Origin: Amphiscolops sp. MND2022
Taxonomy: Eukaryota
Assembly (NCBI GenBank): GCA_964187785.1
Contig: OZ076412.1
Coordinates: 56,420,001-56,484,000, forward strand
Length of the DNA: 64,000 nt
Direction: 5' to 3'
Shown here: one piece after another, positions 1 through 39,116 of the stretch
Position numbering within the stretch: the stretch's first letter is position 1
Layout: every line of letters starts with the position of its first letter
Translations under genes and position numbers: made by a program
Notes under the pieces: model-generated
Seen by the model: the letters and a program-made list of their open reading frames with translations, nothing else
Told to the model about the DNA's origin: nothing
Database searches by the model: none

Positions 1-2
1 CC

Positions 3-209
3 GAATCGGAAGATGAAGACGATGATGATGATGACGAAGGAGAAATGCCGGAAAAAGCCGGAAAAACATATGACACATCGGAGAGAGGGGGACGATACGC
101 CCCAATACAAAAAGACCCTGAAAATGACGCAATACAAATCCACACAGATGGAGAAATGCCTCACAGTGAGAATACCGAAAATAATCATAGACGGTCAAAA
201 TACCAATAG
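3..209 (+). pseudogene. 3' end of an acidic low-complexity reading frame, probably the post-integrase tail of another retroelement
   Basis: Frame 3 is open from the window edge to TAG 207-209 (ESEDEDDDDDDEGEMPEK...RRSKYQ*) and abuts the truncated LTR at 212. No diagnostic domain. Confidence 0.3.
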
Positions 210-211
210 AC

Positions 212-752
212 ATCGAAAAATCGTAAGCCTATGCGCTGATTCCCACAGTGCCGATCGAAAATCAGACGGAACCAGCATGTCCGAGTGATTGCAGCGCCCG
301 GGCCCAGGGTTGTGTCAAACCCAAGAACCAGTGCCATGCCACCCAGAGTAATTTTAGACTTGCCAAACTGGATTTTCGTGCCCTTTTGATGTATTAGGTA
401 ATTGTTTGATGAATTCATTACTCGAGAGCTACCTCTGTTAATGTTAATGTCATTTATGATGAATTTCCATCTGGACCATTTAATTCAATTCAATGCAGCT
501 TAACCCAGGCTATTTTTACAGGCTACTTACACAGTGGGTACGAGGAAAAAAGCGTATTTCATGTGACTAGTAGCAGTTACAGACCGGAACCGGTCAGAAA
601 GCATCCTTAGAGACGGTTCCCTTTTCTCGGGACCGGCACTCCCTAGGAGGACGAAATGAACTGGAATCATGGCGATCAGTCCCGGATCATTACCTATGGC
701 TTCAGTTCCTCCGCCCTGCGTAGCGAATAAACGCTAAGCGCTTTTCGTTACA
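212..752 (+). repeat. 5' LTR, 5'-truncated (lacks the first ~197 bp)
   Basis: Matches 18218-18753 with about 17 substitutions and 2 small indels by hand count. Ends CGTTACA, with AATAAA at 726-731. Confidence 0.93.
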
Positions 753-777
753 TAGGAACATTTAACATGTAATTTTT

Positions 778-794
778 TGGCGACCACAGAGGGA
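778..794 (+). promoter_or_regulatory. Primer-binding site, tRNA-Arg(TCG)-type
   Basis: TGGCGACCACAGAGGGA versus TGGCGACCACGAAGGGA, the complement of the 3' end of vertebrate-type tRNA-Arg(TCG) as recalled (15/17). Confidence 0.75.
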
Positions 795-3287
795 TCGTCT
801 TTGGGAAGCTTTCCTGCATGGTTTTAAAACATCTGACCCTCCGGTGTCCAGCGCCAAGACAGTTTCGACTCTGAAAGAGAAGCCAGAGTTTTGCTCCTAT
901 TTCAACCGATTGCATGTGTTCCTGGTCGCTAGAACGAAGGAGACCGAGAAAACCCGAAGAAAATGCGTTTTCAAGTTCGAAAATGGCATCTTGAGGTTGA
1001 AAAAAAAACCGTAAATGCATGTGTTCGAATGTCATGATATGTCAGCCCATCAGCGGGTATTTGTTTTACAGGTAATGGCCTTCATAGCACGTGGCCACGT
1101 GTGTTAACAGGTATTTGCAGCTGTTTTTAGCTTTTTGAGCCATGTAAGACAGGTACCAATGAGCGACAATCCATACTCCACCAGGGCGAAGGGGATGCGA
1201 AATGGAGTGTCTGGGTTCGTCGATTCCCATTTCTCGTGGAGACGTCTGCGAGGGGTGAAATTTGGTGGACAGAGAGAACAACTCCTAACAAAGCTAATGG
1301 TCCAAGCCGCAGATCTCTAGCTGGTCTGGGCATGGAGAAATTGCGTGGCGAAGATGCACCCCCTGGGGCCAGCAATGTCGCCCAGATGGATCATGGTTCG
1401 TGGAAATTTTGAGTTTGCCCCTTTTTTCATGGGGAATCGTTGGTGCAGGTCAGTGACTCTTTTTTGCAATGTTCCCAGTGGAACGCTTTTGAGCGAAGAG
1501 AACGGCGATTTTTGTAAAAAAAGACGAATTTTCGTGTTTTTCGAGCATTTTTTGGTTGGAGTCCAGGCACTCCGTAATTCCAAGTTAGCATTGTCAGTAT
1601 GGTGGCAAAAGTAGCCTCGGAACTTGAGGGAACTGAGAAAAATAATACTCAAAGGTTCTCGTAACCCTTTTAGGCGAAAGAGTGGAAATTTGCAGTAAAA
1701 AGCGCGAAAATTGGGGAAAAGGGTGGCAAACACCCTAAAATCACTATGGCACCTAGGTGTAGAAGCCTGGGGCACTGTTGTAAAGGAGTTTCTCGGGTGA
1801 ATCACAACCCCAGGGCACTGGAGATAGCTTCTGCTGATCGATTTACGGGTATAAAGACCAGAAAAAGTTGAAATTCTCGCAATTTCGACTGTTTTTGACC
1901 CTTGTAGAGTATAGTGTGAAAAACCCTATTAACCAAACCTTAAATCAACCTTAAGAGCCTAGGCGCTCTAATTTTCTGTTTGTGTAATAAAAAAAACGCA
2001 TTGTGGTGAAAACCGCGTGCGAAAATTCCTGTTCAGTGCTGAGAAAAGTGAAAAAACGCACTGAATTTGATCGAAATTCCACAAAACCGGACTGCCTGAT
2101 TGCCAGGGTTGGGACATAAATTTCCAAACCCTAGCTAAAGCGTGATTACATTTTCGTAACCACCACTAAAATAAACACTCGTACCAAAAAATTGGTGGGT
2201 ATAGCTCTCACCAAAGTTGAGAAAAACTCTCTAACGTTTCCACTTAAAATAGTACCGAAATAAACCCAAAAAAGGCCGAAATTGTAGAGCCGACGGTGTC
2301 CTACACAGAACGGGTACTGCCAATCGGGGGTTAGTAATACTGTTACGACCCGTGGGGCAACGCGTTAACCCCACTTACCCTGCCGTAACATTTGTGGTGT
2401 CGAACTTCTTTGCCGATTTGTGAAAAAAGTGTCAAAAAAGTCTGTTTTTTCAAAAGTAGTGTCCAGATCTACCCGAAGTCCTCTGCAAGCCCAAGCGCTG
2501 CAATAAGACTATCCCAACGGCATTGTAGGTACCTACTGGCAGCGTATGCCAAGTTTTGTGTCGATCGATACGATGGTCATCGATAAATAGACGGAAACGC
2601 ACTGCACAAAAACAGGTACAAAAAGCCGTTTTTTCCAAGTTTTTTGGGAAGACCCGAATGCCCTAGCCAAAGAGTGAGATCGGTTTATTGCTCACCAACG
2701 TAACAGATACTAGTTGGCACACTGCTAGCGGAAAAACCAGACCGCTGACTGCAACCAGTGCTCAGAATTGTGTGATTAGAGTGCATTTTGACCTCTATTG
2801 ATACATAGGAGTACCGCACGTCTGTACCAAGGCGAAACAGTGTACAAGCATCAGAGCCCGTATTAGTGCTCAATTCCTTGTACCTACGTGTGTGCAGGAC
2901 TTTTTGGTCAATTTTGAGCCAAATCCGACCCTTGAGTGACGAATACGTGCCACTCGTGTCATTTTGTGAAAAACTATTACGTGTGTGATTTTGAGCCCGC
3001 TACGGCACTTGAAAGCAAGTTTGACCTTCGCGAGGCGTTCTGTAATTGAAAATTGCTTAAGTCCACGTCGAGAGGACAGGAGGCCTAACATAGTCTGATA
3101 ACTTTCCGTGTCCCCTGGGAACGGATTGGGTGACCTCAAGACACCTCGTAGTCAGGTTGGACGCTTGTCACACCGGCAACGATTCGAGAAGTAGGTATGG
3201 ACGAACGGCAGTACGGCCCAGTGAGTCGAAACGGGAGATACTGGTGCATCATCTTGTGACGTATCTTAGATCAAATGGTGAGGCATC

Positions 3288-5992
3288 ATGTTTTGGGCGG
3301 GCGTAGCAACCGTAGTCCGACTGTTCACGCATAGCACGGAAGAAGGTAGCGAACCCAATGCGTCTGACGCTACCGATTGGAGCGAACTGCAAGAGATAAG
3401 CTCGACCCAACGCGAAAGTTCAGACACCATAAGTCAGGTGAGTCTGAGAGAATGGCCACCTAAGAAGTCATTATTGACTGGTTCCTCCTTTTCAGAAGCA
3501 ATGAGTGACTGTGTTACTGCCGATCAACAACGGCGAGAAGGGCAAAATGCTATGGCCATGAACTCACCCCTATCGGAAGAACTTATCCTCACAGGACAAT
3601 GGATCCAAGACAACAGAGGTGAGTTAACATCGCCTCAAACGGCTGGATTGTGGCCCAACTCCAACCAAACGGCCGCGGAAGTAACCCTTGTGCGCACTGG
3701 GTGTTCTGGAACACCCAAAGACAACGAAAGCCCAGCTAGTAAAGATACCGATGCTATCTTGGAGGGCATGACTTATGTCGGTGGGATGAACTATGCTAAG
3801 TATCGCCTGGAGGCTTGTCGAGCGAAAATCTCTGCCAAGCAAAAAACGCGTCCTCCAACACTGTCTGCAGGACGAGTTAGCTCGCGATGATGCCACGTCC
3901 ACTACCTCATCACGAAGGTCTTCGGCCTATCGGGCTGTCGAGGAAGCCGCTGCCGCAGGGACTGCAATGTTGCAAGCGGAAACTGAAGCCCAACGAGCCT
4001 TAGCACGTCTGGCCGATACCCGTGCCTAATGCAATGAACAGCACAAGGTCATGAATGCAGAATTGGAAGCCTTGCAGGACTCCGTGAAAGGTAGCCTGAG
4101 GAGCGCGACCCAGCAGACCACAGTGCAAGCTGCGAAAATAGACGCCATGTGCTATCGATTGGAGGAAATGAAGGACTTATTTCTCCAGCGCGAACTCCGC
4201 GTGCAAGCACGACTGGATGAACTCAGTGATCAGAAACGCACTCAACGTGGAGCTGCATCTCACACAAGGACCCTTGAGACAGAGCACGCTGAAACTGCCG
4301 AATCTATTGCATCCACGAGTAAGATGATGCCCCCCAACCCGTCAAAAACGCTGAAGACAAGCCCCAAAACGCAGCCCAAAGTAGTCATACCACCACCAAT
4401 AAACAAGAGAACCACAAAAGTGCACGTATGCACGCCCAACCCACTTAGTGACACCTCAATGCCACCGGCGACGTCGCTGACCCGAACCCGGGATCAGGGA
4501 GCAGACGCAATGCCGATCACATCGTCGACTTTTGACTTGACCGACACCAGGGCAACTGCTGGTTCACACTCTAGCAGCACAGAGGACGAAGCCTACGCTA
4601 CCGCCAGGATGAGAACTGGATCTAATTCACTGTTCTTGACTGCGAGCGAAGGAATGCTCACCGGCAAGCCTTGTGCCAGCAGTACTCGCCAGAAAGATAA
4701 CGCGAATGGTGAATTTTCCGTGCAGGCATCTAGAGGCAGTCAAGACAATTCTCCAGCCCCTAGCGAGGGAGAGGAAGTAATATCCCCAGAGCAGCTGCGA
4801 TTTACAGCCGCCATTTCAAAGGCAAGGTCCAAAGAACTGGCCCCTTTGCTGGCTGGACGTGACCAAACGCAAGCTAAGCCTAGCGTCTACAGGGGATCCA
4901 AGGAAGGATCCATTGATGGTTGGATCCTCGTGATGCGGCGTTATTTACAGCGCACGCAAGCCGAAGCAACCCCTGACGATAAAACTTGGAGCCTTATCGG
5001 ACAGCTGGAAGGTGAGGCTCGCTGCCGAGTCTGAAAGGGATACCCCTGAAAAAGTATTCGAATTGTTAGCTAGTCGATTTGGGACTGGAGGCAACCGCAT
5101 GCAGGTGCGCCAGGCCTTCACCACCCGGCAGCAATCCGACAGGGAAGACTGGATGCAGTATTTGGACGCCCTGGAAGGACTTCGAAGCCAAGGCTTTCCT
5201 GAAGAGCCCGTCACAACCAAACGTTACGAAATCGTCCAGCGCTTTGTTGAGGGTATTCGTGATCCCGTCCTACGAAGGGAACTGTCCATCATCTATGCGT
5301 CTGAGACCACTGTTAGCGAACCTCCTACGGTAGAATCCTTGCGATTCACGACCCGACAATTGCAACGTACTAGACCCAAGTCTGTACCGTATGATCCCAG
5401 ATATGCCATGAGATCAAGTCCTCATCCCTTTGCACCGTTACCACCGAACAAGATGGTGTTTCCTCAAGGGGTTCTAACACCCCCTCCTGTAAACCCTGTA
5501 AACAACGCCCTAGCAAACGCGGCGGCAGCACCACCTGTAGCACGCCTTCCAATAGGCGCTTGTTTCAACTGTGGTCAGACTGGCCACTTCGCTCGAGATT
5601 GCCCCAATCGCTACCAAGCTCGCAAACCTGCAGCTGTGCCAGAACCAGAAGAAGTAAAAATATCTGCTGAGGACGTGACTGATGGGATTCTGGACAACTA
5701 TCCTGGAATTCGCCAATGCGCTCACTGTGGCATATTCGGCCACATGGACTCACCGTGCACTGGAAATCTTGTAATTCCAAACGAAGAACTCGCTCACAAT
5801 CGATGGGCAGAGGTAGAGTTGGCCGGTGTTGCTGCCCAAACGGTGCCATTAGAGGACGACCGCGTGCTAATGCTACACCCAGCGGAACCACCTGCGTTCT
5901 ACACTCCACTGACTATCACCTGCGGCGCAAAGCAAGTCCAAACTTGTCTAGAGCCAACCACGTTCGACGACCCCCCCAGGGACGAACGTTGA
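3288..5992 (+). pseudogene. gag: gag, frameshifted (pieces 3288-3890, 3793-4029, 4051-5034, 5012-5992)
   Basis: Capsid-like segment (KPSVYRG...DGWILVMRRYLQ...FELLASRFG...QRFVEGIRDP) and two CX2CX4HX4C knuckles, CFNCGQTGHFARDC and CAHCGIFGHMDSPC. Confidence 0.88.
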
Positions 5993-6087
5993 TCTCTACT
6001 CACCTAATGTTAGCTGCAGAAGAACTGCGTCGGCCAACATTAACGTTAGCCAAATTGTAGGTTGAACTACAAACCTTAAACAAACGC

Positions 6088-6936
6088 GTGGAAAGACCCC
6101 GTCCCAAGGAATGGTACGCCCCAGGGGACTCTGACACACTCACAACTTATTCTCCTGTGCCCATCTGCGCCACGATGGATGGAGTAGATGTGATGTTTGA
6201 AGTCTGTGTAGTGGTGGACGTCTTTCCTCCTGGAATCTGTTTGGGTGCGCCGGAACTCAAGTGCTACAACATTATTCATCAAGAACCTACTGGTGAGGCA
6301 CGGATAGACGAGCGCGCCTCACTTGTAGTCTCCTTCGTTGTGCCCCAGGCGGCACCAATCCCTTTGCGAGGCCTTGTTGACACAGGCTCAGGCGTGTCTA
6401 TCCTAACCTTTTCAGCTTTCAACCGTATAGGCGCTCAAACAGGCACTGTACTGAAACCTTACCAAATCGATTTGTATGCCGCCAACGGCAAAACAATCGA
6501 GACCTTTGGATTGGCAGAGCAGATCCGCTTCCAGCTAGGAGGCTACCAACTTGAAACCAATTTTGTCGTAGTGGATGATGCCATGGGCGTGGAGGACTTC
6601 CTACTAGGTCGTAACTTCCTCCGAACCTACCAGGTGCTCGTGGATCTGACCTCCATGAAGATTTTGGTACGCGCGCAAGTGAAACTTGTCTGGCATCATG
6701 CACATACACAGGTAGGCGATCCTTCCGTAGCCACTTCCGTCGCTTTAGACAGCGAGTTGGTTCTGCAGCCATGCGAACGAACGGTGGTCAAAGCGAAAGT
6801 GGTCACTGACGACCTTGAACCGTTGATATTCCAAAATGTGATGTTGAATGCGGCAATAGCCGACACATCGCTGCAAAACATTGTGTTTTTAGAGGACAGC
6901 GTTGCCACTGTGGCCATGTTTTTGTCAGCGTGCTAA
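6088..6936 (+). pseudogene. pol: Aspartic protease region of pol
   Basis: LVDTGSGVSIL (Asp near 6379), YAANGKTI flap and FLLGRNFL. Followed by the beta-rich linker typical of Gypsy pol. Confidence 0.9.
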
Positions 6937-7369
6937 ACCTGACCAGCAACCCACAACGGATACGAAGGGGATTTCAGCTGGGTAACGTGGTTCCTGTGTC
7001 ATTGGTCTATCGAGCCATTCCACAACAGTCTGCACCCAAACCAGCTCTACGAACTCAGGTCGATAATGACCAATTTGCGTTTGTTAACAAAATTTATGAA
7101 GAGATGAATTACGATACTGATTCACAATTAACTTCTTCTTCTGAAGTTGAGCTTTTGTCCTCAACAGACCCTACTGAGGAAAGTCTCTCAGAACGCGAGG
7201 TACGTGGGCGTACGGATCCCGAACTCATGGCTCCAGTACAGGGACCTGAGTCACAGCTTAAAGAGGTCCAGAACCTATGGTGTCCCAAGGCCTGCGCCTC
7301 ATTAGAAAACATTTTGACCGAATTTGACGATTTGTTCATGAAACACAAGGCTGACATTGGTGCACCATA

Positions 7370-8700
7370 GCCAAACACCCCGTTGAACTAGAACCAGGCG
7401 CAGTACCCCACCGTGAGGGAGCAAGACGTATGTCCCCTGAAAAGGCAGAACGCGCTAATCAGGAGGTACGTAATTTGCTCGTATTGGGTATGATTCAACC
7501 CTCCCTGTCACCTTGGGCAAGTGGGATAGTCATGGTCAAGAAAAAGAATGGCGAGTTACGCTTTTGTTGTGACTTCCGTCCTTTGAATGAAGTCACCGTC
7601 AAAGACGCGTATCCATTGCCTCGGATAGATGAAAGCCTCGCCAGGCCGGGCAAAGCTAAAATCTACACCAATATAGACCTAGCTTGGGCTTTCTGGCAAA
7701 TTCCTGTCCGAAAAGCCGACCGTCAAAAAACTGCCTTCGCCTGCGAGCTAGGACTGTTTGAATGGCGACGCAAGCCCTTCGGGATGTGCAATGCCTCTGC
7801 TACCTTCCAAAGAGCAATAGAACGGGCCCTACGTAGGATCGTGAATCGTGAAGGTAGCATGGTGATGGCCTACATCGATGACATCGTTAACGCCACAGAA
7901 ACAGTGTAGGATCACATGGTACGGCTTCGTGAGGTTTTTGAATGCATGCGAGAAGCTGGCTTCAAAATGAGAGTTGCCAAATGCGACTTTATGAAGTCCG
8001 AGATCAAGTAACTTGGTCGCGTAGTGTCAGCAGAAGGAATAAAGCCGGATCCCAAGGCTGTGTCGAAGCTACGTGACTAGGAAATCCCGCGTAACAAAAC
8101 AGAGATGCAAAGCTTTCTAGGCTTCGCCAACTATTACCGTGAGTTTATTCCTTGGCACGCCAAATTGGTGGCTCCCCTGCATGCGATCACCGGCATCAAA
8201 GCCACTTTTTCTTGGGTAACGGAACAACAATTGGTTTTCAACGAAATAAAAAAAGCACTCATCGATGCCACCGCTCTGGCGCAACCGGATTCCGAAGGAG
8301 AATTTGTGCTGGATGCTGATGCCAGTGCTGTTGCAATTCCAGGCATTCTCCATCAGTGACAAGGCCCACCAGGAGAAAGGCGCCTACGCCCCATCGTATA
8401 TGGCAGCAAGAAGCTTACTGCCACCCAAGCCAAATACGGAGCACCGAAACTAGAAATGTACGCGGCATATCATTTCATCATGTCAAAAACCACAGCTACT
8501 TGTGTCCCCGAAAGTTCACGCTGAGAGTGGTTAATCAAGCGCTTTCAGGCTAAAAACGTATTCCACGGATCAAGCTCTTATTGGCAGATGGATCATGGCA
8601 TCGGAAAAATACCATTTCTGTGTCGAACATCGACCACGAACGCAACATCGCAATGCCGATGTTTTGTCCAAACGCACCAATGATTGCCGATGGAGAGAAC
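7370..8700 (+). pseudogene. pol: Reverse transcriptase and RNase H of pol, disrupted
   Basis: SPWASGIVMVKKKNGELRFCCDFRPLN, YPLPRIDE, PFGMCNASATFQR, YIDD (7871), QSFLGFANYYREFI, FVLDADAS and HRNADVLSK. Several stops and frameshifts. Confidence 0.95.
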
Positions 8701-9478
8701 GACAGCTTGAAAAACAACACCAGTTGCAGAGCGTTGGAATTTCCTATCCCAGGACGAATACGAACGGCTCCCCACCGCACCTTGGTTTGATCAGCAAGGA
8801 CGGGTAATTCCCAATCATCCTGAGTTACCAATACACCTGAAGAATCTACAACCAAATCCCCCTGATCTGGTTCAACGAGTGATTCGTCGCTCAAAACGAG
8901 CAAAGAGGCGGGCTAAGCGGACCGAAGCCTTACACAGTCCACTACCCTCACCGCCCCCTCCCTTCCTACACGCCCACGAAGACTTCTATCCTGAGTACCC
9001 AGAAGACTGGATAGAAGTCACTGAAGAAGCCCGACATGATTATTTACTGCCCACGCATGCAACTAACATTGCCTCACGTACTACCTATGACGTGGCTAAC
9101 ATCGAAGGCGCAACACTGCACAATGCGCCTACCCACATCAAGCAGGCAGTAATGGCCATTCGCAGTGTGAAAACTGAGCTTCACGAACATACCCACACTG
9201 TCCATGGGATCAAGGACCTGGTATTGGCCCAGAACCGGGACGTTCATGTCCTAGCGATCAAAAGGCTAGTCCACGGAGAAGACATAAATCAAGACATCTT
9301 TCCGGAAGATGTTCGTACTTTTGCCCGCAACTACTTTGAACAAAAGAAGGAGTTACTGGTCTTGAACTCTAATGGTGTTCTCTGTGTGAAATACCCGGCT
9401 TCACAGCGTCCACTGCATGAGCGACCCTACATGATTGTGATGCCTCAGTTGTACCAACACGAGATCCTTTTTCGTGCA

Positions 9479-10500
9479 CATGATGCCATGGGACACCAAG
9501 ACATTAGCAAGGTTGTGGCTCGCATACAAGAACGCCATACCTGGCCTGGGATACGCCGCACAGTGTGTGAATACTTCAGCCAATGTCTCACGTGCCAACA
9601 GGTCAGAGACAAGCCTGGAGACGTACGCTTCCACCTCAAAAACATTCAAAGTGGATATTTTAATGAGTTGGTGCAATATGATCATATGAAAATCTGTCCC
9701 ACTGATGACGGTAATACCGGGATCTTGGTCATAATTGACCATTTCTCGAAATTCGCCGAAGCCATCCCTTGTAGTCATGACGAATATAACGCCATCACCA
9801 CTTCCCGATTATTGCTTCAGATGTGGTTCGCTCGCCATAGTACACCCACTCGGATGCAATCGGACAATGCTCCGAATCTTACGGCGGAAGTTTCCAATGA
9901 ATTCATGAAGGCCTCTCAGGTCACAAAGGTAACCTCCACAGCTGGCCATCCACGTACGCAAGGCTTAGTGGAACGCCAAAACCGTACTTTGCTCACATTA
10001 TTACGCATTTCTGTTCGCCTCGAATGCGCGACTGGGACCAGCACCTGGATGAGGTCCTTGGCGCGTATAACTCTACACGCCATGCAACCACAGGGTTTTC
10101 ACCCTATATGTTAACCCGAGGTACAGAAAAGGCAATACCTCTTACATATTTGTACCCTGAGTTTGCCACTCAGTCTTTTCCTACACATGATGCGTATGTA
10201 GACCATGTGTTGGCGCGCCAACAGGAAATTCATGACCTGGTGCGTAGAAACACACACCAAGCTCAGCTGCGACAATGCTTAAATACGATCACGCAATAAG
10301 GGCCAAAGCCTACGCGAAAGGCAATTTAATATGGGTTTTGTGTCGGTATGTTCCCCAAAAAGGTTCTCCCAAATTAATGCGCGCTTAGCGTGGCCCACAC
10401 CGTGTGGTGCACACCTTACAAGATGGACGTGTTTACATCCTTGACACAGGTCAAAAGGTCCATTTTGAACGTCTCAAACCGCACATTAGTGGCCCCCTTG
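9479..10500 (+). pseudogene. pol: Integrase (HHCC, DDE core, GPY/F-like tail)
   Basis: HDAMGH...CLTC, YDH, IIDHFSKFAEAIP, MQSDNAPN, HPRTQGLVERQNRTL, AYNSTRHATTGFSPY, RGPHRV. Confidence 0.95.
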
Positions 10501-11165
10501 AATTTGTCGCCACTCCTCTTGATACCGGCGACGTAGCCGTGGCCATGGACCTGGAGTCCGAACACTCCATAGAACCCACCAATGATGACTGTTCTAAACT
10601 CTCCTATAAATCTGAGCACCTGCTTTCAGAGACTTCGAATGCTTCTTTACCTTCTAGTCAGCGTCACTGGATGGACACGCGATTGCGCACAAAGCTGCGC
10701 GCGGGAGGAACCCGACAGCATTACCAGCAGTTCGACTACTCCACTTCCGACACAGACGAAGAGACGCATGACGAGATGCTTCCCATCCCTACCTACTCCC
10801 CACAACAAGTTCACACCCAACACCATCCTGAAGCAATCACCGACCCATCGGCACCTGACCTTTTATCAGATGTATCGTTGCTCAGCGGTCTCCCGCAACT
10901 GTTTTCCGATCATGAGCCAATGCGCTCACCTTCACCATACATTTCACGGTAAAGTAAAACAACGGAGCTATCCCCAATGGGCACCTCTGCTCCGTTGCTG
11001 ACTCAACCTTCCTTAACCGGCTACCTCAGCAACTATCCTCTTTGGCCGGATCGCGGTAAAGATTCTACTGTGCCATCTTCCCGTCCATCTTCACCCTCAG
11101 GATCTATACCCTCGGTCACCATAACGGTTAAGTCACCACAACCTCCACCCACCGCTCCTTCTATC

Positions 11166-11198
11166 AAAAGGGGGAGGGGGAGGGGGAGACCTCGGAAG
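11166..11198 (+). other. AT-hook-like motif in the post-integrase extension
   Basis: KRGRGRGRPRK contains the GRP core flanked by basic residues. Confidence 0.65.
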
Positions 11199-11636
11199 AT
11201 AACTCATCAGCAAAAAGTCAAGGGCAAAACAGTGCCCAAAGTACGAAAATTAAAACCGAGCACCCAAACGGAACCGATCTCAGAACCGATACCAACTGAG
11301 ACACAGACGACAGCCCAGATACAAATGTGGCACATGTGCCCTACGCGATTGAGTATGCGTGCTGGCAATGAACGAAAAGCGAGATGTTCCCACTGGAGCC
11401 CGGGGAGTCCCCCAGCAGGGACGGCAGCATACCGAACTAGTTCACCGCATCATTGTACGAGCAGAAAAGACCTTCTCTGGGGTGGAACGGACTGAAAAAT
11501 ATCCAGTCGAGACAATTTTGCAACAAATGGCGACACCAGGCGTTGCAAAAGCACCATGTCCTAGATCAAAGAATGGACTAGTGATGGCAAGGGCTTAGAG
11601 TTTACGCTAGCCACTGTGGTACCCCCGGTACCTCCC

Positions 11637-11981
11637 AGCATTGTGTTCGGACCATTTAATTTTGAAAGAGAACAGGTGCAAATGGCCAAGTGCATCACTG
11701 CTGACCTGTTACTTGATCGGCATGGAGTGGAAGTGCAACCAGCCGGTATCTACAGCCCAGTCCCATACTGGTGGCTCATGGTAACCGCATCCCGCGTCGA
11801 CGCGTTAGTAGATCCTCAACATTTGCTATTATGCTTAGAGAGTCTCAGGACATCCACGACAGAAAACCTGATTCTTTGTTTCCACTTGATAGATTTGTAT
11901 CGAGGCAAGGTGAAATTCCGTTGGTGGTTAGAGTTAATCATCACGTGTTTCACTGACTATCCGCGAATCCGTTTGCTGGAT
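11637..11981 (+). pseudogene. Macrodomain-like repeat 1 (TARG1/OARD1/Poa1p type), degenerate
   Basis: GPFNF...MAKCITADL...YWWLMVT...LLLCLESL...LCFHLID...WWLELIITCFTDYPRIRLL follows the OARD1 pattern GDLF..LAHCISED..IYYLITK..LQKSLEAM..LSMPRIG..VSAMIEEVF..IKITV. By-eye alignment. Confidence 0.55.
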
Positions 11982-12194
11982 GAATGGATCCATACTTTTG
12001 AGGAACCCCTACAAGTCAAAGCAGCCATAAGCACGCTGGACATCTGGGTTCGAGCAAACGTAGACAACCAAGCACTACCACGCTCTGTATGGCAGGATCT
12101 GGCCAGCATACAAGGTCGTACACCACGTGTGTGTAGACCTGCGGACAACGGACCTGGTCGAGAAATAGTATATCCAGGTAATCTGTGTCCCGAC

Positions 12195-12620
12195 ACAGTA
12201 GAATATATCTCATACGATGCTACTGATTTCCTACAAGCTGAAGGACACATTGCCTTGACATGTCCAGCGGACTTGGAAACAATTTCGGCAGCGCTACGCT
12301 ACATCTTGCGGGAATGCGGCAAAGAGCAAGTGATTTCATTACGCCCGCAAGTCGGAGAAATACTTACTCTGACCCCCACGATTACCAATAAACTCACCCA
12401 AACTATACATCTACTGATCACACGCGCGAATCAACGCGCGCCATTGATAGCTGATGATTTTCTACTATGCTTGAGGAAGTTAGTGGCATAGCTAGAGGAC
12501 AGGGGAATTCCTCAGATCCATTTTCCCATACTGGATCCTGAAAGACCCGTATACTCACTAACTAACTTGTATCGGGTGATGATGGACATATTCGTAGACA
12601 CGAGCATACACGTAGTACTG
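12195..12620 (+). pseudogene. Macrodomain-like repeat 2 (TARG1/OARD1/Poa1p type), one in-frame stop at 12489
   Basis: VEYISYD...HIALTCPADL...RPQVGEILTL...IHLLITR...DFLLCLRKLVA*LEDRGIPQIHFPIL...LYRVMMDIFVDTSIHVVL. The frame ends TGA at 12693-12695. Confidence 0.7.
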
Positions 12621-12934
12621 CAAAATCGCGTGTACGTGTCTATTTTAGGCATTGAAGTGGGTGTTAGACCACCTTGTTGCCATCTCCCAAACTGAAGGTA
12701 GCCGTGAACCACGGTTATTCTAGATAATTTTACTGTGCTGTACACTCTATTTAAACATTAGTTGCTCACTTAAACCCTAAAAAGTATGCCTTCAGCATTC
12801 CTGTATTTAGTTTATCATTGACTTTAGTGATGTTTTCCATTGACGAGTTCCTTTATGGAACTGGTTTTAACAAGGCATCAATCAGCATCCGTATAATGGC
12901 TTTAACAAGTATCTCTTTTTAGACCCATGATAAG

Positions 12935-15900
12935 ATGGCATACCATCACACGGCCTCTGCAGCAATGTCTGCCCACCCCAACCCAATCAAAACGCTGCGC
13001 GAACTCGGCGAGTTAATCAGGTGCAGTGTATTGAGGAGAGACTGCGCAACGGCATTTCGCCGGCAGCTGTGGCTGGAATCACTGCTCTCCTAGCACAGTT
13101 GGAGACACAGCCTACTCTACCCAGTCTCGCCGTGTCTATAGTAGCAGATGTGGCAGGTTACAAACGTACCATGACCTGTAGAAATGGAGTATGGGATGGC
13201 TATGACCTAACCCACCCTTTTCTAGATGACAGATCCACTACAGTGAGAGGCCCCAGTGTACAAACGACTGTCGAACAAGAGGTTACCCTGCGTATTCCAC
13301 TTGCAAATGTGCCCATGCTTTAACCTTTGAACCCGGGACATCTGGTTATTCAGCCTCAATCACAGATACACCCGCAGTCGGGAACTCAACCGCTGATGTA
13401 TTTGCCAAGTGCCTAACCAACAACACCATCCGCAGCACAAGTAGCGCCATATGCCAGTGCTCCCGCAGCCCATGCGCCGCATATGGTTCTAAGCGCCACT
13501 CCACGATTAGAACCAGAAGCAGGCACTTCCAGTCCACTGTCCAGCGCCAGAGTGCAATCAGTGCAGTCTTCCGCACCACCTTCCATGCGGTCAGGCGTAA
13601 CTGCACCTGACATGTCGCACAGGCCTCCCAGTGAACAAGCTGTAATCCAAGCATTACAGGCAGTGGCAAATTACCCTGAGTCCAGGGATTTCGTGGAGAC
13701 AGTCTCGAGACAAACGCCAGAATAGCAGAATCTTTTAGGAAGCAGAGGACAACCAGAGGGTTGTCTGACCACGAGAGAAGGTCAAGGTCCAAGCACCGAC
13801 CCACTCACTCCTAGTACCAGCGCGACCAGAAATCGAGCGCCCTCGCCAATACCTGGATTGTCGCCCGTATCTGATGAAGAACTTGGCCGCAAAAGGGCAT
13901 CGCCACATGAGCTGGCTCAATCGGTTGGCAACAAGGATAGCCCAACGAGCCGTCCTCCGCCGGACAAGCAAAAATATGTACTTCGATCTGTGGTGATACA
14001 GGAACCACCAAAAGTAGGCTACCATGGCATCTCCGAACCCCAGATGACGATGAAAGAAGTGATGGAACGATATGTTCCGAGCATCTGTGCCAGAGAGCAC
14101 CGACAATTCAATGCACTCGAGCTCCTCGACAGCAAAATCTGGGAAGAAATTCACGGGCTCACCGTATTTCCCACAATCGGACAATGTATCAGGACCCGTG
14201 GTAACGAGAGATGCTAAACGCATTTGGCAATTCGCCCCCAAGTTAAACGATTGACAATATCGTGACCGCCAAAGAGTACCGCCGACTAACACCCACCAGG
14301 CACAACTGCGAAAGCTATCGGTAATCGTCCATGTGACACGAACTTTGCGCCCCTTCGACGCCGATACAGGGGAGGCAGCGTGGGAACAACGAATAATCAG
14401 ACGACTCACAACGACTCATGACAATTATCTTCGTCCTTTGCAAAACTACTTACATGAACAATGCAAGGCCAGATATTCGCTGCGACCAGGTGAAACCTGG
14501 GAAACACACAGCCAATGCCCTAGAAACCTGAAAAGAATGAAACCAATGTCGAAAGAGGCAATTCAACGCACACGTTACTGCGTGATGGTTGATTCAACGG
14601 TCCCATGCGACCTCCCTCTCGACAACGTTATTCCGGATGAATTGGTTGTGACTATGCCTCTATCGCGACTGCCCGAAATGGCAGAGGTGGCTATAGCCTT
14701 ATTCTCTGCCGAAGGTCACCAGAGCGAACTTCCACCAAGTCGCACTATTTTTGCCAATTTGATGGACCACATGGCCTGCGAAGGTCTATTGGAAAATCTA
14801 CCCCATTTGCTGCGTGAGATGTCAAACAACGAAACGGCCAAAAATGTTGTAATCAAGGTATTACATCGAGTGGCGACTGCAATAGAGCGTACGGCAGAGT
14901 TGCTCCGCACACACCTAAAAGTGCCGGCGATGTTCATCTCTCCCCCTGGAAAGTTGTATTGGGGAGGAATGTTCCAGCAGTTTATCTACATGCTAACAGA
15001 AATTTGCAGTGCTCGCAATATCGAATTCTACCTATGCGCACCTAACTTACGCGTCGGAAAAGACTACTTACGTCCTGCTGCAGTCTCAGTACACGCATAC
15101 TTGGCAGTAATATCACGCTTAATGTAACCAATGGAACGTGGTGGCAATGCCCAACTAACGTGGGACGATGCAATATACTTCGACCATGGAATGCGTCTAG
15201 GCACGCTAACCTTCGATGAAACAGGAAAGCGAATTGGCTCAGAAGCAACCATTGCAGAACGCGAGAACATGCGCAGATACAACTGGCTGGTGCGCGAAGC
15301 ACATCCCAACACCATCAAGGCAGACCTTGCAGCAGTCTGGGATCAACTGAATCGATGGCCACTTAACCGTGAGGTCGAAAGGACCATTCCCCAAATTCAA
15401 TTCGCCGACAACACAGAAATCATCAAAATGCCACTGAGCATTAGGCACATTGTAGCCCATGAGGCCGTGACCCTTAGCAATTTGGTCCAAGCCAAAGAGG
15501 CCACTTACGGGGATTGGTACAACGATCGCCTAGCCACAGTTACTCTAGAAATGACCGCACGAACCCTGTCTGTCTCTTTCCAAGCATTGCTGACAAGTTT
15601 TGGATTGGGTTGGCATATGGACGTCATTGCAGACGAGTTCAACCTGACTGATGGACAGCTGCGAAGACTCACTGAAACTCAAAGAAACTTCGGTAAATGA
15701 GGTGTTAGCCCTTGGGCCTACCAAATTCGTAGCTGGACCGCTAGCCATCGTTGTAGACTTGGTCACATCCGGTGGAGTGTTGGAGTTCTACACTTACCTA
15801 GTCTTGGCTCAAGGAAAACTACCCAGCTTGCTTGGGTGTTAAGAAATTCTCTTCACACAAAACGGGCACAACTACACCGAGCATTTGTTCCGGATGAGAG

Positions 15901-17173
15901 CTTCCGTGCAACACTGGCTCTATTCCACACTGATCTATGCATCAGGATTATTAGTAGGAGTGGACCAAGCTCAACCCCTACACGATCCGGACGCGCAGTT
16001 GCCTCGTGAAAACCCGGGCTTTCCGATGCCGCAACAATTGGCTGACCTGACGCTAGCCTAAGTAGAGGACTTAGTTCCAGGGGTAGCTCCCGTTTTAATT
16101 CCAATCTTTGGAGCTCTTGGATTACTACGCTATCCAACCAAGCCAGTATCCCTAGCAGTGCATGTTGCAACGGTATCCATCTTCACGTACCTTCAAGGAA
16201 GCCCGCCTATGAGCTATGCACAAACGATACGAGAAACCTACAGTGGCGAAGTACCCCAAGCGTATACCACTGTCAAGACTGAGCAACAACGGAAAAAAAT
16301 ATGATGGGTGTTGTCCGTGCCTTGTCGCGCAAAGCCGCCGTCTTACCAAGGGAATACGGTCCCATCAATTGGTATAATGCTCCTGTTGACTTAAATGAAC
16401 AACCATTCCGGTTTCCTTGGTCGTCAGACTTTATCAAGAAAGTGATAAATCCCTGCCTGCAGCTTAGCCCGCATGTCCGTTCGGACTACAAGTTTAAATT
16501 CATCCAGGTACCCAATCGCTACTGGAAAGAGCCAGTAGGCTACCCTCGCGCACGCCCAATTGGACGCGGGAAGGAATTGCTGGATCACCAATTACGCCAC
16601 TTAGACGTGGCCAATGTACCCAAATGGATTCACGTGGCGGCACTAGTGCGTGATCGCAACCTGTCACGTAGAATGGCCCCCTTACAATACGAGCCTGCCT
16701 GGCGCCCACAAGGACGCATGACCATGTCCGGAGATATGCCGTTGTCGTTATTGGACATACTGAACCAGATGTTAGGCGCAGAAATGCGCGCCGAATGGGA
16801 CGATGAATGCCTCAATCTTGAAGTCAGCAGTTTCGACATATGGAAACAAGCTTGCGCACTCTGGAAGCAAGCTGGCTGGGTATCAAAGCGTGTAGCCCTG
16901 GCAGCCAACCACCGTGCTGAAGAAGAACGCATTGCTCGATATGCGCCACAACAGTCACAGCCTCCTACTATGGCGATGTCATTGGAGCAACCAATGACGG
17001 TGGAAGCTAATACAAATGAATCAGAAGTTACAGCAGATAACACAGCTATGCCTGTAACTCCTATTTCTTCTGGAGAACATGCAGCAGAGCTGACCCCAAA
17101 TGTAGAGCTGGCAGAACTATTGATACCGATGTCGAAACTGTTGTTCCTTCGCCAGTCCGACGAGAGTCAGTGA
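12935..17173 (+). pseudogene. Second long ORF (~1400 codons) in the env position, disrupted by about 5 frameshifts and several stops
   Basis: ATG 12935. Track ORFs 13021, 13483, 13858, 14333, 15131, 15651 and 16301 join by single stop read-throughs (mostly TAA/TAG where CAA/CAG is expected) or 1-nt shifts. Confidence 0.7.
14573..15124 (+). pseudogene. SGNH/GDSL hydrolase-like domain within ORF2
   Basis: Block-like motifs in the correct order and spacing: YCVMVDS (I), TMPLSRLPEM (II), IFANLMDH (III), AMFISPP, NIEFY and KDYLRP..SVHAYLAVI (V, with His replaced by Arg). Confidence 0.55.
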
Positions 17174-18010
17174 GCGATGCCTCACCTCCAAGAGAAGTCT
17201 CTCCTCGAAGCAGGAACAAATCTGCTATTCAATGAACTGTCGACGTTTTAACGAACCTGAAGCTTTATCAATCAATCAAAGGAAGCTAGGCCTTCCGCAA
17301 TGAAAACTCCAAAAAACTTCATAGCCTTATTACGGTGCTGCATTCGATTGGTGCAATTTTAGTTAACTGTTGTTAGTTAGACATTTTGATTTAGATATAT
17401 GCCTCGGGTGTAATGGCCAAAGAGTGGGCCTGCCCCCTGTGCTAGCATTACGTTAACAAAACTGTTGAAAAAAGAAATGATCAAGCTAACTATGTTTCCT
17501 TTCAACAAACGCCTTTGGCGTTGTCAAAAATAAGGAAAACCAGGTGCGAGGGCATAGTCGCCAAAAAATCTTTTAAACTCTAATCAAAACCCTTTAGCTG
17601 AGTCTTGTACACTCTATTGACTGTCTGTTGTTAACGGAGCTTATACGCTCCTGAGAAAAGATGTTTTAAACGAAAACTGCAAAAAAAAAGATATCTACAA
17701 AAAATGAGACAAAGACATTTTAGCAGGCACTTGCCGCAAAAGACATTTTAGTCGTCACCAGTGCTAAAAATGGCTTAAGCCACCTTGGAAGCTCAAGCTC
17801 TCGAGCTGGTGCTACGAACGTCTCGATTTTTTTTGTAAAAAATATTAGGTCTTGTAGTAAAGTTGCGATAAGATCCGAAAAGGCAATGTTTCAAAAGTGG
17901 CTGTTCTATGCAACGGCACATCAACTTCAAGATGTATCCACAGCATGGGCAATGTCCTGCCTTAAGACGAAAACCCCCGATGCTTGCCAGGGACGACAAG
18001 CCAGGAGCCC

Positions 18011-18020
18011 AGGGAGTGGA
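18011..18020 (+). promoter_or_regulatory. Polypurine tract
   Basis: AGGGAGTGGA immediately precedes TGTAACG. Confidence 0.8.
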
Positions 18021-18753
18021 TGTAACGGCACCCTGTGACCAACGAAATTTTCGAAGTTTGACGATTTTCTGAAATTTTCGTTCAAAAGTGACGTGGCCCT
18101 CGAACATGTGTTCACGAAGTACCAGTCCCGCAAAATTATAGAGAGCGTGGATCAGCAAGGCCCGCGAAGCGGAAAAAAGTGACACGACAATAAGAGAAGC
18201 GCGTACAACGTCACGAAATCGAAAAATCGTAAGCCTATGCGCTGATTCCCACAGTGCCGATCGAAAATCAGACGGAACCAGCATGTCCGAGTGATTGCAG
18301 CGCCCGGACACAGGGTTGTGTCAAACCCAAGAACCAGTGCCATGCCACCCAGAGTAATTTTAGACTTGCCAAACTGGATTTTCGTGCCCTTTTGATGTGT
18401 TAATTAATTGTTTGATGAATTCTTTACTCGGGAGCAACCTCTGTTAATGTTAATGTCATTTATGATGAATTTCCATCTGGACCATTTAATTCAGTTCTAT
18501 GCAGCTTAACCCAATTTTTACAGGATATTTACACAGTGGATACGAGAAAAAAGCGTATTTCATGTGACTAGTAGCAGTTACAGACCGGAACCGGTCAGAA
18601 AGCATCCTTAGAGACGGTTCCCCCTTCTCGGGACCGGCACTCCCTAGGAGGACAAAATGAACTGGAATCATGGCGATCAGTCCCGGATCATTACCTATGG
18701 CTTCAGTTCCTCCACCCTGCGTAGCGAATAAACGCTAAGCGCTTTTCGTTACA
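18021..18753 (+). repeat. 3' LTR, 733 bp
   Basis: Perfect 7-bp inverted termini TGTAACG/CGTTACA, AATAAA near the 3' end, direct repeat of 212-752. Confidence 0.95.
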
Positions 18754-31850: not shown

Positions 31851-34800
31851 AATTTGGTGAGTTTGTTTTTCAACCGTTTTCCTGCTCACTCTCACGATGC
31901 TTGTCTAATCTTTTTTTCTCGTTCTCAATTTTGTGCTTTTTTGCGTCTCGGGTATTCACAATTTTTGCTATTTTAGCCGTCTGTTACCGCCATGTTGCTT
32001 CCGTTAACTTTGTAGAATATTTTCGTGGTAATTCCTGTTTTGCTGCCCCGATTTTGTTTCAGTTACTTCCTTTTGCCTGATTCTGGCTTTTGTTTGGAAT
32101 TTGTGAGGGATGGATCGACCATGACAGTATCTCCAGTTCTCTGGCAGGGAAGAAGACTTTGCTGTGTGGCAGGAGCAATTCAAGGGGTTCTGTTTCACAA
32201 AAAAGCTGCTGAACGTGTTGAATGGAACCGATGCTGGTACGAATGACAAGAAGTACGGAATTTGGGCGTACTTGGTACAGTGTCTCGACAACCGCAATAT
32301 CCTGATGCTGACGAACTACTGCAAGGGTGATGGTCCGAAGCCATGGCAACTACTGTGGGACCACTTCAACAGCACCGAAACACCGCGGTTGATGAGCATT
32401 TTGGAGAAGTTCACAACACCGCGATTGGAAACCTTGTAGAGTTTTGGCCATGAAAAGAATAAACTTTGCAAAAAAGCCCCTTTTGAACCCTAGGTCAAGT
32501 GCCGAGACAGGAGAGTCAAACTTAGCCGAGGGCTTACTTTTCTTTTGCGATGGCAGTGAGACTGCTTTCACTAGCCAAACTGTCAGCTGAAGGAGCACAC
32601 TTTAGTCATCGACTCTGGTGCTTCCTTGCATATGTTTTTTGGCCGTTCTCTGTTCTTCGACTTTAGGGAAGGAACGCATTGCAAAGTGAAATTGCGAATG
32701 GGACTTTTTCGCAAGTTGAGGGTTTTGGAGAAGATTCTCTTTTACTGTTGGACCATGATGGGATTGAACGTTGTGTGACAATATCCGACTGTCTTTTTTT
32801 TCTTGATCATTCTCATAGCTTGATCAGCATTGGTAAGTTGATACAAAACGGGGCTTAAGTGAATTTTGGAATAATCTCTGAGAAGTTTTGTCAATGGAAA
32901 AGCAACTATTCTTTTTGAAAGAGCACGCTAAATGTTACGTTTTGAGAGGAAACACATTTGGTCTTTGTTCTTTATCCAGCGAGAACGAAGAAGCGGTGCT
33001 ATGGCCACACCGCTTTGGTCACAACCATTTCAAAAATGTGAAAAATTTGGCTAATCATGTTTCGGGAATGAGCTTGAAAAAATGGCTTTTGATAAACTTT
33101 GTTGTTGTGAAATTAGCAAAACTTCTAAGTCACGATGGCAAGCAGTATCGTGAAAAAATGGAGAGAAGAATTACTTCGAAACATGATTCCGTTTTCATTG
33201 AACTTTTGGGATCGATGCCAACTACTTCGCTTGGTGGCAATCGACGTGCAACTTTCTTTACGGATAGCTACAGCAGGTACTCAGCGGTAGATTTCCTCAA
33301 AGCGAAAGAGGAGTGCCTATATAAACTCAAAGTGTTTTGTGCGCAAGTGGGAACGCCAAGAGCAATCCGTTCTGATAATGGGAAATACTGCATTTCAAAG
33401 TTGTCTCGAAATTTTTGTATATCAAACAGAATCAAACGTGAGCATACTGCCCCCTTTTCGCCGCATAAAACTGGTGTGAGTCAACGTCGCTAGCGAACAA
33501 CAGTTGAAATGGCTCCCTACATGCTAAAAACAGCCAAATTCAGCAGTGAGTTCGGGTTCGGACCTAACACCCTGTTTTTTACATTTCAAACTGTTGCCCC
33601 CATGTAGTTTACCAGGTAAAACGCCCGTTCTTTGGTGAAAAACCAGATCTTTCCGGTTTGATTGTTTTTGGGTGTACTGCTTTCTTCCACATTGAAACGC
33701 ATCAAGACAAACTTTGCGATAAAGCCACCAAGGAAGTTTTTGTTGGTTAGTCTGAGGATTCCGAAGCTTACATTTTGTACAATCCTTACACTAGAAAAAC
33801 TCGTTTGATGAGACTTCTTTTGATTCTCTTGCTGCTGACCCAAGTCAAAACATCCGAGAACTGAGAAGCCGACACCGAAAAAAGTTTTGCCTGGAAAAGT
33901 GAAATATTTTTGCAAAAAGTCTTCAGTTCCTGTTTTACCGACTGAAACATTGAATGATTTCGAAACTGAAACAACCCTTACCCCATTGAATTTTTTTCAT
34001 CTGAAACATTGGTGCCATTGAAAGTTGTGTTTTTCCTCAGTCTCGAAATGGGATAGGTATTAAACTTCCTGGGTATCTCGACGACTATGTTCTTTTATCA
34101 GATGACAGAGAAGAGAATCTGAGATATGGTTAAGCAATGAAGTCATCGCTCGAATGCCAATGGACTGAAACTACTCGAAACGAGTACAATGCGCTGATTG
34201 AGAACAAGTACTGGGTGCTCCCTCGGCTTCCCCTAGGCCGAAAAACCATTGGTAGCCGGAGGGTGTTGAAAATTCAGCGACACAACGAAGGAACTTTTGA
34301 GAAATTTAAGGCTTGTTTCGTAGTCCAAGTGACTTCAAAAATTTTAGGAGCGATTACGATGCAAAATTTGCGCCTACTGCCAAACTTTGTATCTTGAGGA
34401 TTTGTTTTGCGCTCGCTGCTTCTCGGTCGACTTTTGGTTTTCAGTTAGACGTCCGTTCAGCCTTCCTCAATGCTCACTTAGGTGATGAAATTTACATAGA
34501 ACAACCAAAAGGCTTCGCGCAAGCGCGTGCTAATGGTGAAACACTTTTTTGCAAGTTTCAAAAATGCCTTTATGGTTTAAAGCAAGCAGAGAGGGAACGG
34601 AACAAAACCCTTATCCAGTGGTTTTTGAAGATCAAACTTTACAGTCTGCCGAGGATCATTTTTTTCGTTGCAGTGGGACCACGAATAAATTAGGATGACT
34701 GGACTAGGATTGATAGGACAACAATCCGCTGCAATTTGTACTAGTTTGGGTCGACAGTAATTTGTATTTGTACTCGTCCTTGTAAAGGGACTTGTACTTT

Positions 34801-36289: not shown

Positions 36290-38110
36290 GCTGAAAACTT
36301 GATACCCAAACTTAATGATATTTGTGAAACCTTGCGTCAAGCATTGCCTTGTAAGGCTTATTGCTCTCTTCTAGAAGCATGTTTTTGGAAAAACCACCTC
36401 GAGGAGGTAAACTTCGGAAGTCATCAATCAGTACAATTACCAACAAGCGTAATCGGGACTGTGTCATTGAGAAAAAACCGAAACTCGACAGAAAACTGCA
36501 GCAGAAAAGCGAGTTAGATCGGTGACAGCGTTCCATTTGCACCTGATTAAACGAAGGTAATGTTAAGGTCGGGATCACAATGGCAGTAGACGGCGACAAG
36601 ATTGCAGATTTCACGGTCGACAACTGTTTCACGGTGAAAAATGTTTTTCAACCTCGGAGTTTTTCGTCCACCAGGCTCTCATGTCCTTCCCCAACGGCTC
36701 TGGTGCAGGCTTGGATGGCATTTCGGTCAAAGTTTTGAAAGATTTGACTGCCAAACCGAACGGGCAAACTGGATTGAATCTTCTCAGAGCCTTAACAAAT
36801 CTTGTGAATGTGATTTTCGAAGGAAAAGTGCCTTTCGAACTTCGGCTTTACTTCTTTTGTGCGAAACTAATTGTGCTAAAAAAGACCTATAGAGGACTTC
36901 GTCCTATCGCTGTAGGCAATTCGTTCTGGCCGATTGTCCGCAAATGGTACTGGATACCATCTCTTCGAATCACGTCAAGTAAGACACGAAAGTCGACAAG
37001 TAGGTGTAGGCACCAAAAGAGGCGCTGAATCGGCCTCACATGTTTTTCGTTGTTTGATAAAAAAACCTCAGCCCAAAGAAAACGTAAATTTGGAAATTGA
37101 CTTCAAAAACGTTTTCAATTCGATAAACCAACAATTCATGCTAGAGAAATTTTTGAAATACAACTTGAAATTTAAAAGTATTCACATTCGGGGTACAGTC
37201 AGCCAAGTTTCTTTTTTTACAGTTATTCTGTAATCAAACCTTGTGAAGGGACCCAGCAAGGAAAGCCTGAGTCTCCAGATTTTTTTTCGGATTCCATTCA
37301 GGATCTGATTGACAGTTTGGAGTCGAAAATGAACTTATGGTACCTTGACGATGGAAGTTTAAATGATGATTACAGAACCGTTTTGAAAGCTCTGAAAAAA
37401 TTGCTGATGCGGAAAAAACGCTGGGACTCAAAATTAAACCTACGAAATGCGAAATTTTTTTCCTTAGTGACGTCACTGAAAATGACGATCACCAATCGTT
37501 CCGAAAACATTGCTCGGGATCAAAACGCCAAAAAAAGATGAACCTATCAATTGTGGTTCACCGCGCGGCCCAAAATCACAGGCAGACGTGTTGGAAAAGT
37601 ACATTTGTGAACTGGAAGAAATTAATGGAATTGATGGAAAACTAGATGCGCAGTATAGTCTTTTTCATGTTGAAAAATTGCTTCAGTCTGCCAAAGCTGT
37701 TGTACTTCCTGAGAACCAGTAGATGTTTTAATCATCCTTGGAAAAGTATGACAAAACCTTACGCTCTCCAAAGTGTGTAACGTAAACAACGACGATATTT
37801 CAGCTGGCTCTGCTGGCTGAACTGGGTGGTCTTGTGGTTTCATCCACATCTTTTTTAGCACTTCTCGCCTTTTTCGCTTCAGCTTTTGGTGCTAGTGATT
37901 TTTTCACGACGGTTTTCTCGGAAACATTCGAAGATGTTTCGTTTACAAAAGCGCTCGAGAAATTGTTGAGTTTGACGAATGAACAGGAAGGTTCTCTCGA
38001 TGGAACCCAGAAAAATTGGATACAACTTGTCTACGTCAAAACCGTCCAATGTTTGATTTCTAGAATGTATGACAAACGTTTGAAAGTTTTTAACGCTCAT
38101 CAAGGCTAAT
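36290..38110 (+). mobile_element. CRE-clade-like non-LTR retrotransposon RT fragment
   Basis: SGAGLDGISVKVLKDL, LKKTYRGLRPIAVG, VGVGTKRGAESASH, IDFKNVFNSI, NLWYLDDGSL, LALLAFFASAFGA. Frameshifted. Confidence 0.85.
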
Positions 38111-38699
38111 TCGGGTCTCAATTTTACTGTTTTGCATAATAAATGCTGCGCACCAATACCACGTCAACAACCGCTGAATATGAATACAATCGTCTGGGAA
38201 AGTTATTTTTTAGCTGATTTCTCGAACAAAGCTGGCTTAGGACGAGTATTATATTATTCCGTTTCTATAAATGTTTGCTCCTGCGAGTGCTGATCCTGAG
38301 ACTTCCCTATGGGAGTCTAACAAAAAACCCACAAATCGATTGGCTCCCGGGAGCTAATCGCGGAATGTTTTTGTAAACAAGAATGTGCATTGGTTGCAGT
38401 AATTGACATGATGATGTTCCTTACGTCTTCGATGTACTTTTTTTTCGTTTTTTACGACATGATTACTGATTGTACACTGAATGTAAGGAGTCTGTAGTTT
38501 TATACATAATCTAATTGTTTTCAGCAAGTCCCGCAGCTTGAAGTAGGGTAGTTTATCGTTAGACTGTAATATCATAACTAAAATACACATATTTGACGTA
38601 TGTTTCCATATAATAACGTACTTAGTTGACTTAATTTGCTCAGATAAAATCCGATCTGGATTTTCGCAATGTGAATTGCATCTTAAATCAGACATCTAT

Positions 38700-39110: not shown

Positions 39111-39116
39111 AGAGGA

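Follow-up and report, generated by a model that had tools for sequence, protein, structure and literature searches.

Introduction

Human TARG1 (OARD1, C6orf130; PDB 4J5Q, 4J5R, 4J5S and 2LGR) is the closest described relative of the domains reported here. The G123E substitution in this protein abolishes both ADP-ribose binding and hydrolysis and leaves RNA binding intact (PMC5928194). SCO6735 is a hydrolase although it is without both TARG1 catalytic residues, and DarG retains only the Lys (PMC7050489). Because SCO6735 hydrolyzes without the Lys and the Asp, their absence alone is no proof of catalytic death.

In a viral polyprotein, sarbecovirus nsp3 contains SUD (SUD-N/SUD-M, Mac2/Mac3), a tandem of macrodomains without ADP-ribose binding (PMC2674928); their catalytic loss is also covered in PMC10221186. 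The latter documents that macrodomain activity was lost repeatedly in PARP14 and in RNA viruses, and its accessible text does not mention transposons. Among reverse-transcribing elements, fish epsilon-like endogenous retroviruses carry macro domains (Basta et al., 2009, as cited in PMC4977317), but these belong to the Retroviridae and not to Gypsy. Our literature search turned up no account of TARG1-type domains in Gypsy elements; Repbase reports, subscription papers and supplements lay outside its scope, so an earlier description may exist. Some Gypsy polyproteins of insects appear in public annotations with TARG1-like domains. The chromodomain of chromoviruses, which differs in fold, has a role in targeting. 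It provides a precedent for a host-derived domain at the C-terminus of Gypsy pol (PMC12440569).

The window analyzed here is a 64,000-nucleotide stretch of the genome of Amphiscolops sp. MND2022. In a prediction made from its sequence (the original prediction), two segments of a retroelement were proposed to be tandem TARG1/OARD1-like macrodomains at the C-terminus of the integrase polyprotein, acting as catalytically degenerate readers or decoys of ADP-ribose. Both segments, named macro1 and macro2 below, have TARG1 as their top structural match, macro2 also by profile, and they share its order of fold elements. They differ from TARG1 in sequence (12-14% identity), in the residue at Lys84 (Arg in macro2, Ala/Ser in macro1), in the replaced G121-D125 loop with Glu or Tyr at Gly123, and in standing in tandem in a retroelement polyprotein. 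The likeness to SUD lies in the tandem arrangement and in the lack of ADP-ribose binding, which here is deduced from sequence. However, the origins differ, as the Gypsy tandem would descend from TARG1-type domains, and SUD follows an active Mac1, whereas no active macrodomain was detected in the tandem-macro element.

Structure of the element and its polyprotein

Positions 1-18752 of the window hold a single LTR retrotransposon of ~18 kb with features of the Metaviridae (Ty3/Gypsy): LTRs with TG..CA ends, a gag CCHC knuckle and the order PR-RT-RH-IN. All features given below are on the forward strand. Of the 5' LTR, the 3' part is at 209-751, and the first 190 nt (L039:8066-8255) precede the window by ~1.95 kb. 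The 5' LTR is split by a ~1.95 kb piece of another integrase-coding element (L039:8256-10000 to window position 208). The 3' LTR, with TG...CA ends, is at 18020-18752. Against the 3' LTR, the 543-nt and the 190-nt stretch of the 5' LTR each give 95.8% identity, and the element stands between a 3-bp duplication (AAA).

The gag-PR-RT-RNaseH-integrase-linker frame spans 3817-11571, as recognized by Pfam (zf-CCHC, gag-asp_proteas, RVT_1, Integrase_H2C2, rve) and by tblastn with a natural copy, and is disrupted by stops and frameshifts. Basic motifs precede the macrodomains at 11166-11337: an AT-hook-like KRGRGRGRPRK (11166), RYQLR (11287) and the start of a CxxC-x4-CxC motif (11320). The first is a lead, with E-values of 0.2-0.64 to Pfam AT_hook; the YxLR and Cys motifs are present in 12/12 aligned copies. 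We take the YxLR motif to resemble the chromatin-binding motif of foamy-virus Gag. For that protein, PMC6042332 supports only the conserved Y537 and R540.

Both macro segments lie inside the frame 11565-12692. Macro1 (about 11637-11987, 117 aa) is followed by a conserved inter-domain segment (11988-12197) with one predicted helix of low pLDDT, and then by macro2 (about 12198-12632, 145 aa). An in-frame TAG interrupts macro2 at 12489-12491. This codon is a sense codon in 28 of the 30 closest copies compared and a stop in the window copy and L004, in agreement with the proposal that the second segment continues past it. Because of its stops and frameshifts, the window copy does not itself reveal that the segments end the integrase polyprotein. 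Their C-terminal placement is borne out by the unbroken copies, where a single open frame of 3,049-3,220 aa encodes gag-PR-RT-RH-IN-linker-macro1-macro2.

A second ORF (12934-17173), ~1,430 aa long in unbroken copies, is broken in the window copy. It gave no Pfam or PDB match (window 12934-17173; L036:1309-5622), and the ESM Atlas returned nothing for the part of it that was searched. By eye, part of ORF2 looks SGNH-like, a tentative lead, and its match to P0388, a related element with Pfam PF13472, has an E-value of 0.06. Elsewhere in the window, 32882-33493, 37524-43611, 45247-52127 and 60217-60720 carry an SCO1/SenC-coding ORF and pieces of further elements, among them blocks of ~3.4 kb and ~3.1 kb that are duplicated, a second RT/integrase relic and an integrase that has a gag_pre-integrase domain.

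Family size, activity and target-site duplication

The frame with the macro segments was searched against the 1.07-Gb genome. A total of 137 of 4,038 candidates were scored, and 137/137 were at 70-100%. A frame of 3,193 aa is listed for 27 of 121 rows, and some copies have identical LTRs. The tandem-macro Gypsy family is therefore large and recently active.

Target-site duplications were scored at loci that include L132-L161. In a single young subfamily, 13 LTR pairs gave 11 duplications of 3 bp; the other two pairs have none. Five further 3-bp cases come from three other subfamilies, one solo LTR and the window copy, and there is one non-match (L066+L067). The family thus departs from the 4-6 bp usual for LTR elements; in a canonical-macro family, the one copy scored is flanked by 5 bp. 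The combination of a 3-bp duplication and TG..CA ends would probably escape LTR finders requiring 4-6 bp.

In its duplication the family resembles Troyka, the only group for which 3 bp is described in the accessible text of PMC12440569. Membership in Troyka or the Kuafuorterviruses was considered and rejected because the LTR ends, the knuckle and the RT motif differ. In the tandem-macro element, of ~18 kb, the LTRs are ~720 nt long with TG..CA ends, the knuckle is CX2CX4HX4C and the RT motif is YIDD, whereas in Troyka the LTRs are 100-400 nt long with CG..CG ends, the knuckle is CX2CX8-10HX4C and the RT motif is [ILV]ADD (PMC12440569). Ends, knuckle and RT motif in the accessible part of the Kuafuortervirus paper likewise differ from ours. 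The word ‘macro’ has 0 occurrences in the main text of the Troyka paper.

The predicted TARG1-type fold of the two domains

Single-sequence searches found no Pfam family in the window segments, no Macro family among 62 family members and no relevant PDB match. A profile of these 62 relatives (the unbroken copy L015 and 61 of the 120 listed proteins) was searched against 177,635 PDB sequences. Its sole match was human TARG1/C6orf130, with an E-value of 0.006 over 78 ungapped residues of macro2. An AlphaFold2 model of L015, made with the 62-relative alignment, shows two confident α/β domains joined by a low-confidence link. The top structural match of this model is TARG1 (Foldseek E-value 2.7e-8; VIA-align Z 16.3, rmsd 2.3 over 136 residues), and the match falls entirely in macro2. 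Macro1 of the window was modelled alone (pLDDT 85.6), and TARG1 is again at the top (Foldseek E-value 2.4e-5; Z 12.6, rmsd 2.9 over 117 residues). The runners-up for macro1, DarG, Poa1p and a Bacteroides protein, are close behind TARG1, with the next ALC1-like matches within ~1 Z unit of it; Foldseek ranks 1-8 are all TARG1. The profile and structure comparison with TARG1 that the original prediction had called for thus came out in its favor, by structure for both segments and by profile for macro2. The models predict a TARG1/OARD1-type macro fold (the ALC1/TARG1-like class), one that Pfam does not see. Since Pfam is blind to them, similar domains are likely unannotated elsewhere.

The sequence-profile link to TARG1-type domains is direct for macro2, with hhalign probabilities of 94-97%; against the single domains of other Gypsy families it is 97% (E-value 8.5e-11). 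Macro1 is linked through macro2 only (95.5%, E-value 1.5e-8), its direct comparison with the single Gypsy domains giving 11% (E-value 0.003). The fold similarity of the domains to SUD is weak (Z 7.3-8.1). For macro2, the ESM Atlas gave a score of 0.90 and a cluster with 22% Macro members, which is a lead only.

The ADP-ribose pocket

TARG1 numbering was taken from the PDB chain and anchored on literature residues 84, 123 and 125; residue 125 is Glu in a review and Asp in the PDB chain. The pocket was assessed by alignments, and the counts are of related rows, decayed copies included. Macro2 has the full fold. At Lys84, in the motif LLITRA (12411), it has Arg in 124/131 rows and Lys in 1. Its motif FPILDPERP (12522) places Asp-Pro-Glu-Arg over Gly121-Cys122-Gly123-Leu124, with Asp at Gly121 in 103/107 rows, Glu at Gly123 in 94/107 (Gly in 3), and Pro or Ser at position 125 in 96/105. 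The equivalent of TARG1 Asp20, which we take to be the adenine contact, is retained in 136/154 rows. Macro1 is a shortened version of the fold without loop 1 and its helix, and no Asp20 equivalent is clear. It has Ala/Ser at Lys84 (148/156 rows; LMVTAS at 11775), Tyr/Phe at Gly123 (155/162) and Gly at position 125 (152/160), so that D-x-Y-R-G stands where TARG1 has GCGLD. GCGLD itself is absent from the window frame. The replacement of the Lys84 and Asp125 equivalents, part of the original prediction, is seen in this frame and in the family rows.

The domains belong to the TARG1-like fold class and, judged by these alignments, lack the residues of a TARG1 hydrolase at Lys84, residue 125 and Gly123. 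Ancestral-type removal of ADP-ribose has likely been lost from both, and so has ancestral-type binding. Catalytic degeneracy, as originally claimed, agrees with the loss of the catalytic residues but does not follow from the Lys and Asp alone, as SCO6735 illustrates. Around the old cleft, macro2 has a conserved C-P-A-D and a set of Arg residues, which together with the Asp20 equivalent could mean a remodelled nucleotide site. Among representatives with <70% identity, surface Arg residues of macro2 are conserved in 20/20 (R255), 17/20 (R266), 17/20 (R293) and 16/18 (R333). Both domains are net acidic, with K+R against D+E of 10/15 in macro1 and 12/17 in macro2.

Selection on the domains

Four pairs of unbroken copies, none overlapping another, supplied the pooled dN/dS values (Nei-Gojobori). 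Two very young pairs, overlapping or with nearly no differences, and the dS-saturated pairs between the deepest subfamilies were left out of the pool. The values are 0.063 for macro1 (95% bootstrap 0.03-0.11), 0.105 for macro2 (0.07-0.16) and 0.073 for the inter-domain segment, compared with 0.017 for RT, 0.015 for the IN core, 0.046 for gag CA and 0.17 for the linker. Neutral decay of the macrodomains, which the original prediction had named as an outcome against it, is ruled out. The two domains are under purifying selection and are therefore needed by replicating lineages.

Relatives with a single TARG1 domain

A Pfam Macro search of the genome placed 3 of 6 matches in long element frames, and these are other Gypsy families. 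Their single domains match human TARG1 (profile E-value 1.6e-38). The canonical single-domain families (L044, L089, L092, L096, L127, L130, L131) retain the Lys and G-[CS]-G-x-D. The single domain occupies three sites in the polyprotein: behind the integrase, between RNase H and integrase (L130), and behind the protease (L131). The scored genome candidates, a list filled by element copies, did not include a TARG1 gene of the host itself. A host macroH2A-like gene (L042) and MacroD-like exons (L040, L041) were recognized by eye from translations and fit an animal host.

In the list of 120 long RT relatives, both domains are present in 53 of the 62 nearest to the family. Farther relatives have one C-terminal domain, which is canonical in P0395-P0397, retains the Lys in P0400, P0413 and P0414, and is degenerate in P0399, P0402, P0404, P0407 and P0408 (by eye only in P0403, P0406 and P0410). 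In P0386, the loop of a macro2-like domain reads D-W-D-R, and another macro-like stretch, recognized by eye, lies ahead of this domain. Two other RT relatives, P0409 and P0411, are polyproteins with the helicase-type Pfam domains PF13086 and PF13087.

An RT tree was built from 37 chosen rows, copies of this genome and database relatives, in a quick run with SH-aLRT support only. Canonical (P0395-P0397) and Lys-keeping forms (P0400, P0413, P0414) share a 25-row group with degenerate forms (SH-aLRT 80). Within the tree, one group of degenerate forms includes the tandem family (95), and another (98) is nested among Lys-keeping lineages (97). A third loss is found in a distant Gypsy clade of the same genome with 22-25% RT identity and long open frames (L125, L129). 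The canonical site thus appears, from alignments and tree, to have been lost in at least three lineages with the domain retained. In L084, L088, L125 and L129 the Lys is lost and the phosphate loop reads G-[LC]-E-H-[ND]; Gly123 is changed to Glu or deleted, an ambiguity of a one-residue gap. The dN/dS of this lineage is ~0.2, with dS near saturation.

Macro1 is far closer to macro2 than to the single domains, and both have D-x-x-R in loop 2. The tandem therefore likely arose by duplication of an already remodelled domain.

Discussion

The reading we favor, at about an even chance, is that the tandem domains give the integrase tail a binding module with a blocked pocket, whose most likely partner is a chromatin-associated protein of the host. 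On this view, one active TARG1 domain would have stood behind the integrase in an ancestor of the clade. Lys84 would then have been replaced by Arg and the Gly-rich phosphate loop by D-x-E-R, closing the pocket. Duplication of the remodelled domain would have followed, with loss of loop 1 from the front copy. The pair may now tether or shield the pre-integration complex, together with the AT-hook-like, YxLR and Cys motifs that precede it. Given the net acidic charge of the two domains, a protein partner is more likely than a nucleic acid. By analogy, the module may work most like SUD. Targeting to PARylated chromatin, as suggested in the original prediction, fares worse. The flanks of 13 young insertions have no shared feature beyond common scattered repeats, with G+C of 0.33-0.41, and no tRNA gene lies within 1.5 kb of 30 LTRs. 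Therefore, the flanks and LTR surroundings give no support for insertion-site targeting.

The ligand of the module could be of another kind. Macro2 might still be a non-catalytic reader or decoy of ADP-ribose or PAR, in which Arg side chains replace the amides of the Gly loop. The retained Asp20 equivalent and the near-invariant Arg at the Lys84 and Leu124 positions fit such a role, and the fact that many Gypsy families of the genome have TARG1 domains that look active suggests that ADP-ribosylation matters to these elements. However, Glu at Gly123, the change that abolishes binding in TARG1, together with Asp and Pro in the phosphate loop and the missing loop 1 of macro1, weakens the claim for the tandem pair, and we consider this less likely reading an unlikely one. 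That RNA binding survives in TARG1 G123E (PMC5928194), outside the pocket, would instead fit nucleic acid as the ligand, be it element RNA, cDNA or structured host DNA or RNA. SUD, with its binding of G-quadruplexes, is a precedent (PMC2674928), and R255, R266, R293 and R333 would offer a conserved surface on macro2. The net acidic charge of both domains and the location of the basic motifs upstream of them make nucleic acid binding, in our judgment, less probable still.

Macro2 could also remain a hydrolase that uses Asp, Glu and Arg at the old site on a substrate related to ADP-ribose. The examples of SCO6735 and DarG leave room for such chemistry (PMC7050489), Asp330, Glu332, Arg333 and Arg293 are conserved, and one distant row (P0162) retains the Lys. 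It is nevertheless improbable, since the diphosphate-binding loop itself is replaced, and the loops of the other degenerate lineages differ and are not conserved. Lastly, the pair may have no specific ligand and serve as a folded cap that stabilizes the polyprotein or the integrase. The low-complexity linker is also constrained, so the selection is partly generic. Against this stands the conservation of the polar loop residues DxER, RxFxLRPxVG and HDRVYVSI to ~37% identity, and we regard an inert cap as very improbable.

Returning to the pocket-blocked binding module, a wider scenario can be drawn, which we offer as a tentative and rather doubtful one. A Gypsy clade would have captured TARG1 as an enzyme against ADP-ribosylation and, more than once, converted it into a pseudo-enzyme with a blocked pocket. 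In the present family, the duplicated pseudo-macrodomain would be a novel kind of integrase tether that parallels, with a macro fold, the chromodomain of chromoviruses, alongside an integrase that cuts with an unusual 3-bp stagger. The genome itself provides a natural series, with Gypsy families whose TARG1 domains are apparently active at one end and families with the domain retained and the pocket closed at the other. With this series, one can test whether ADP-ribosylation acts as a restriction on animal retrotransposons, and what role macro folds play once ADP-ribose binding is gone.
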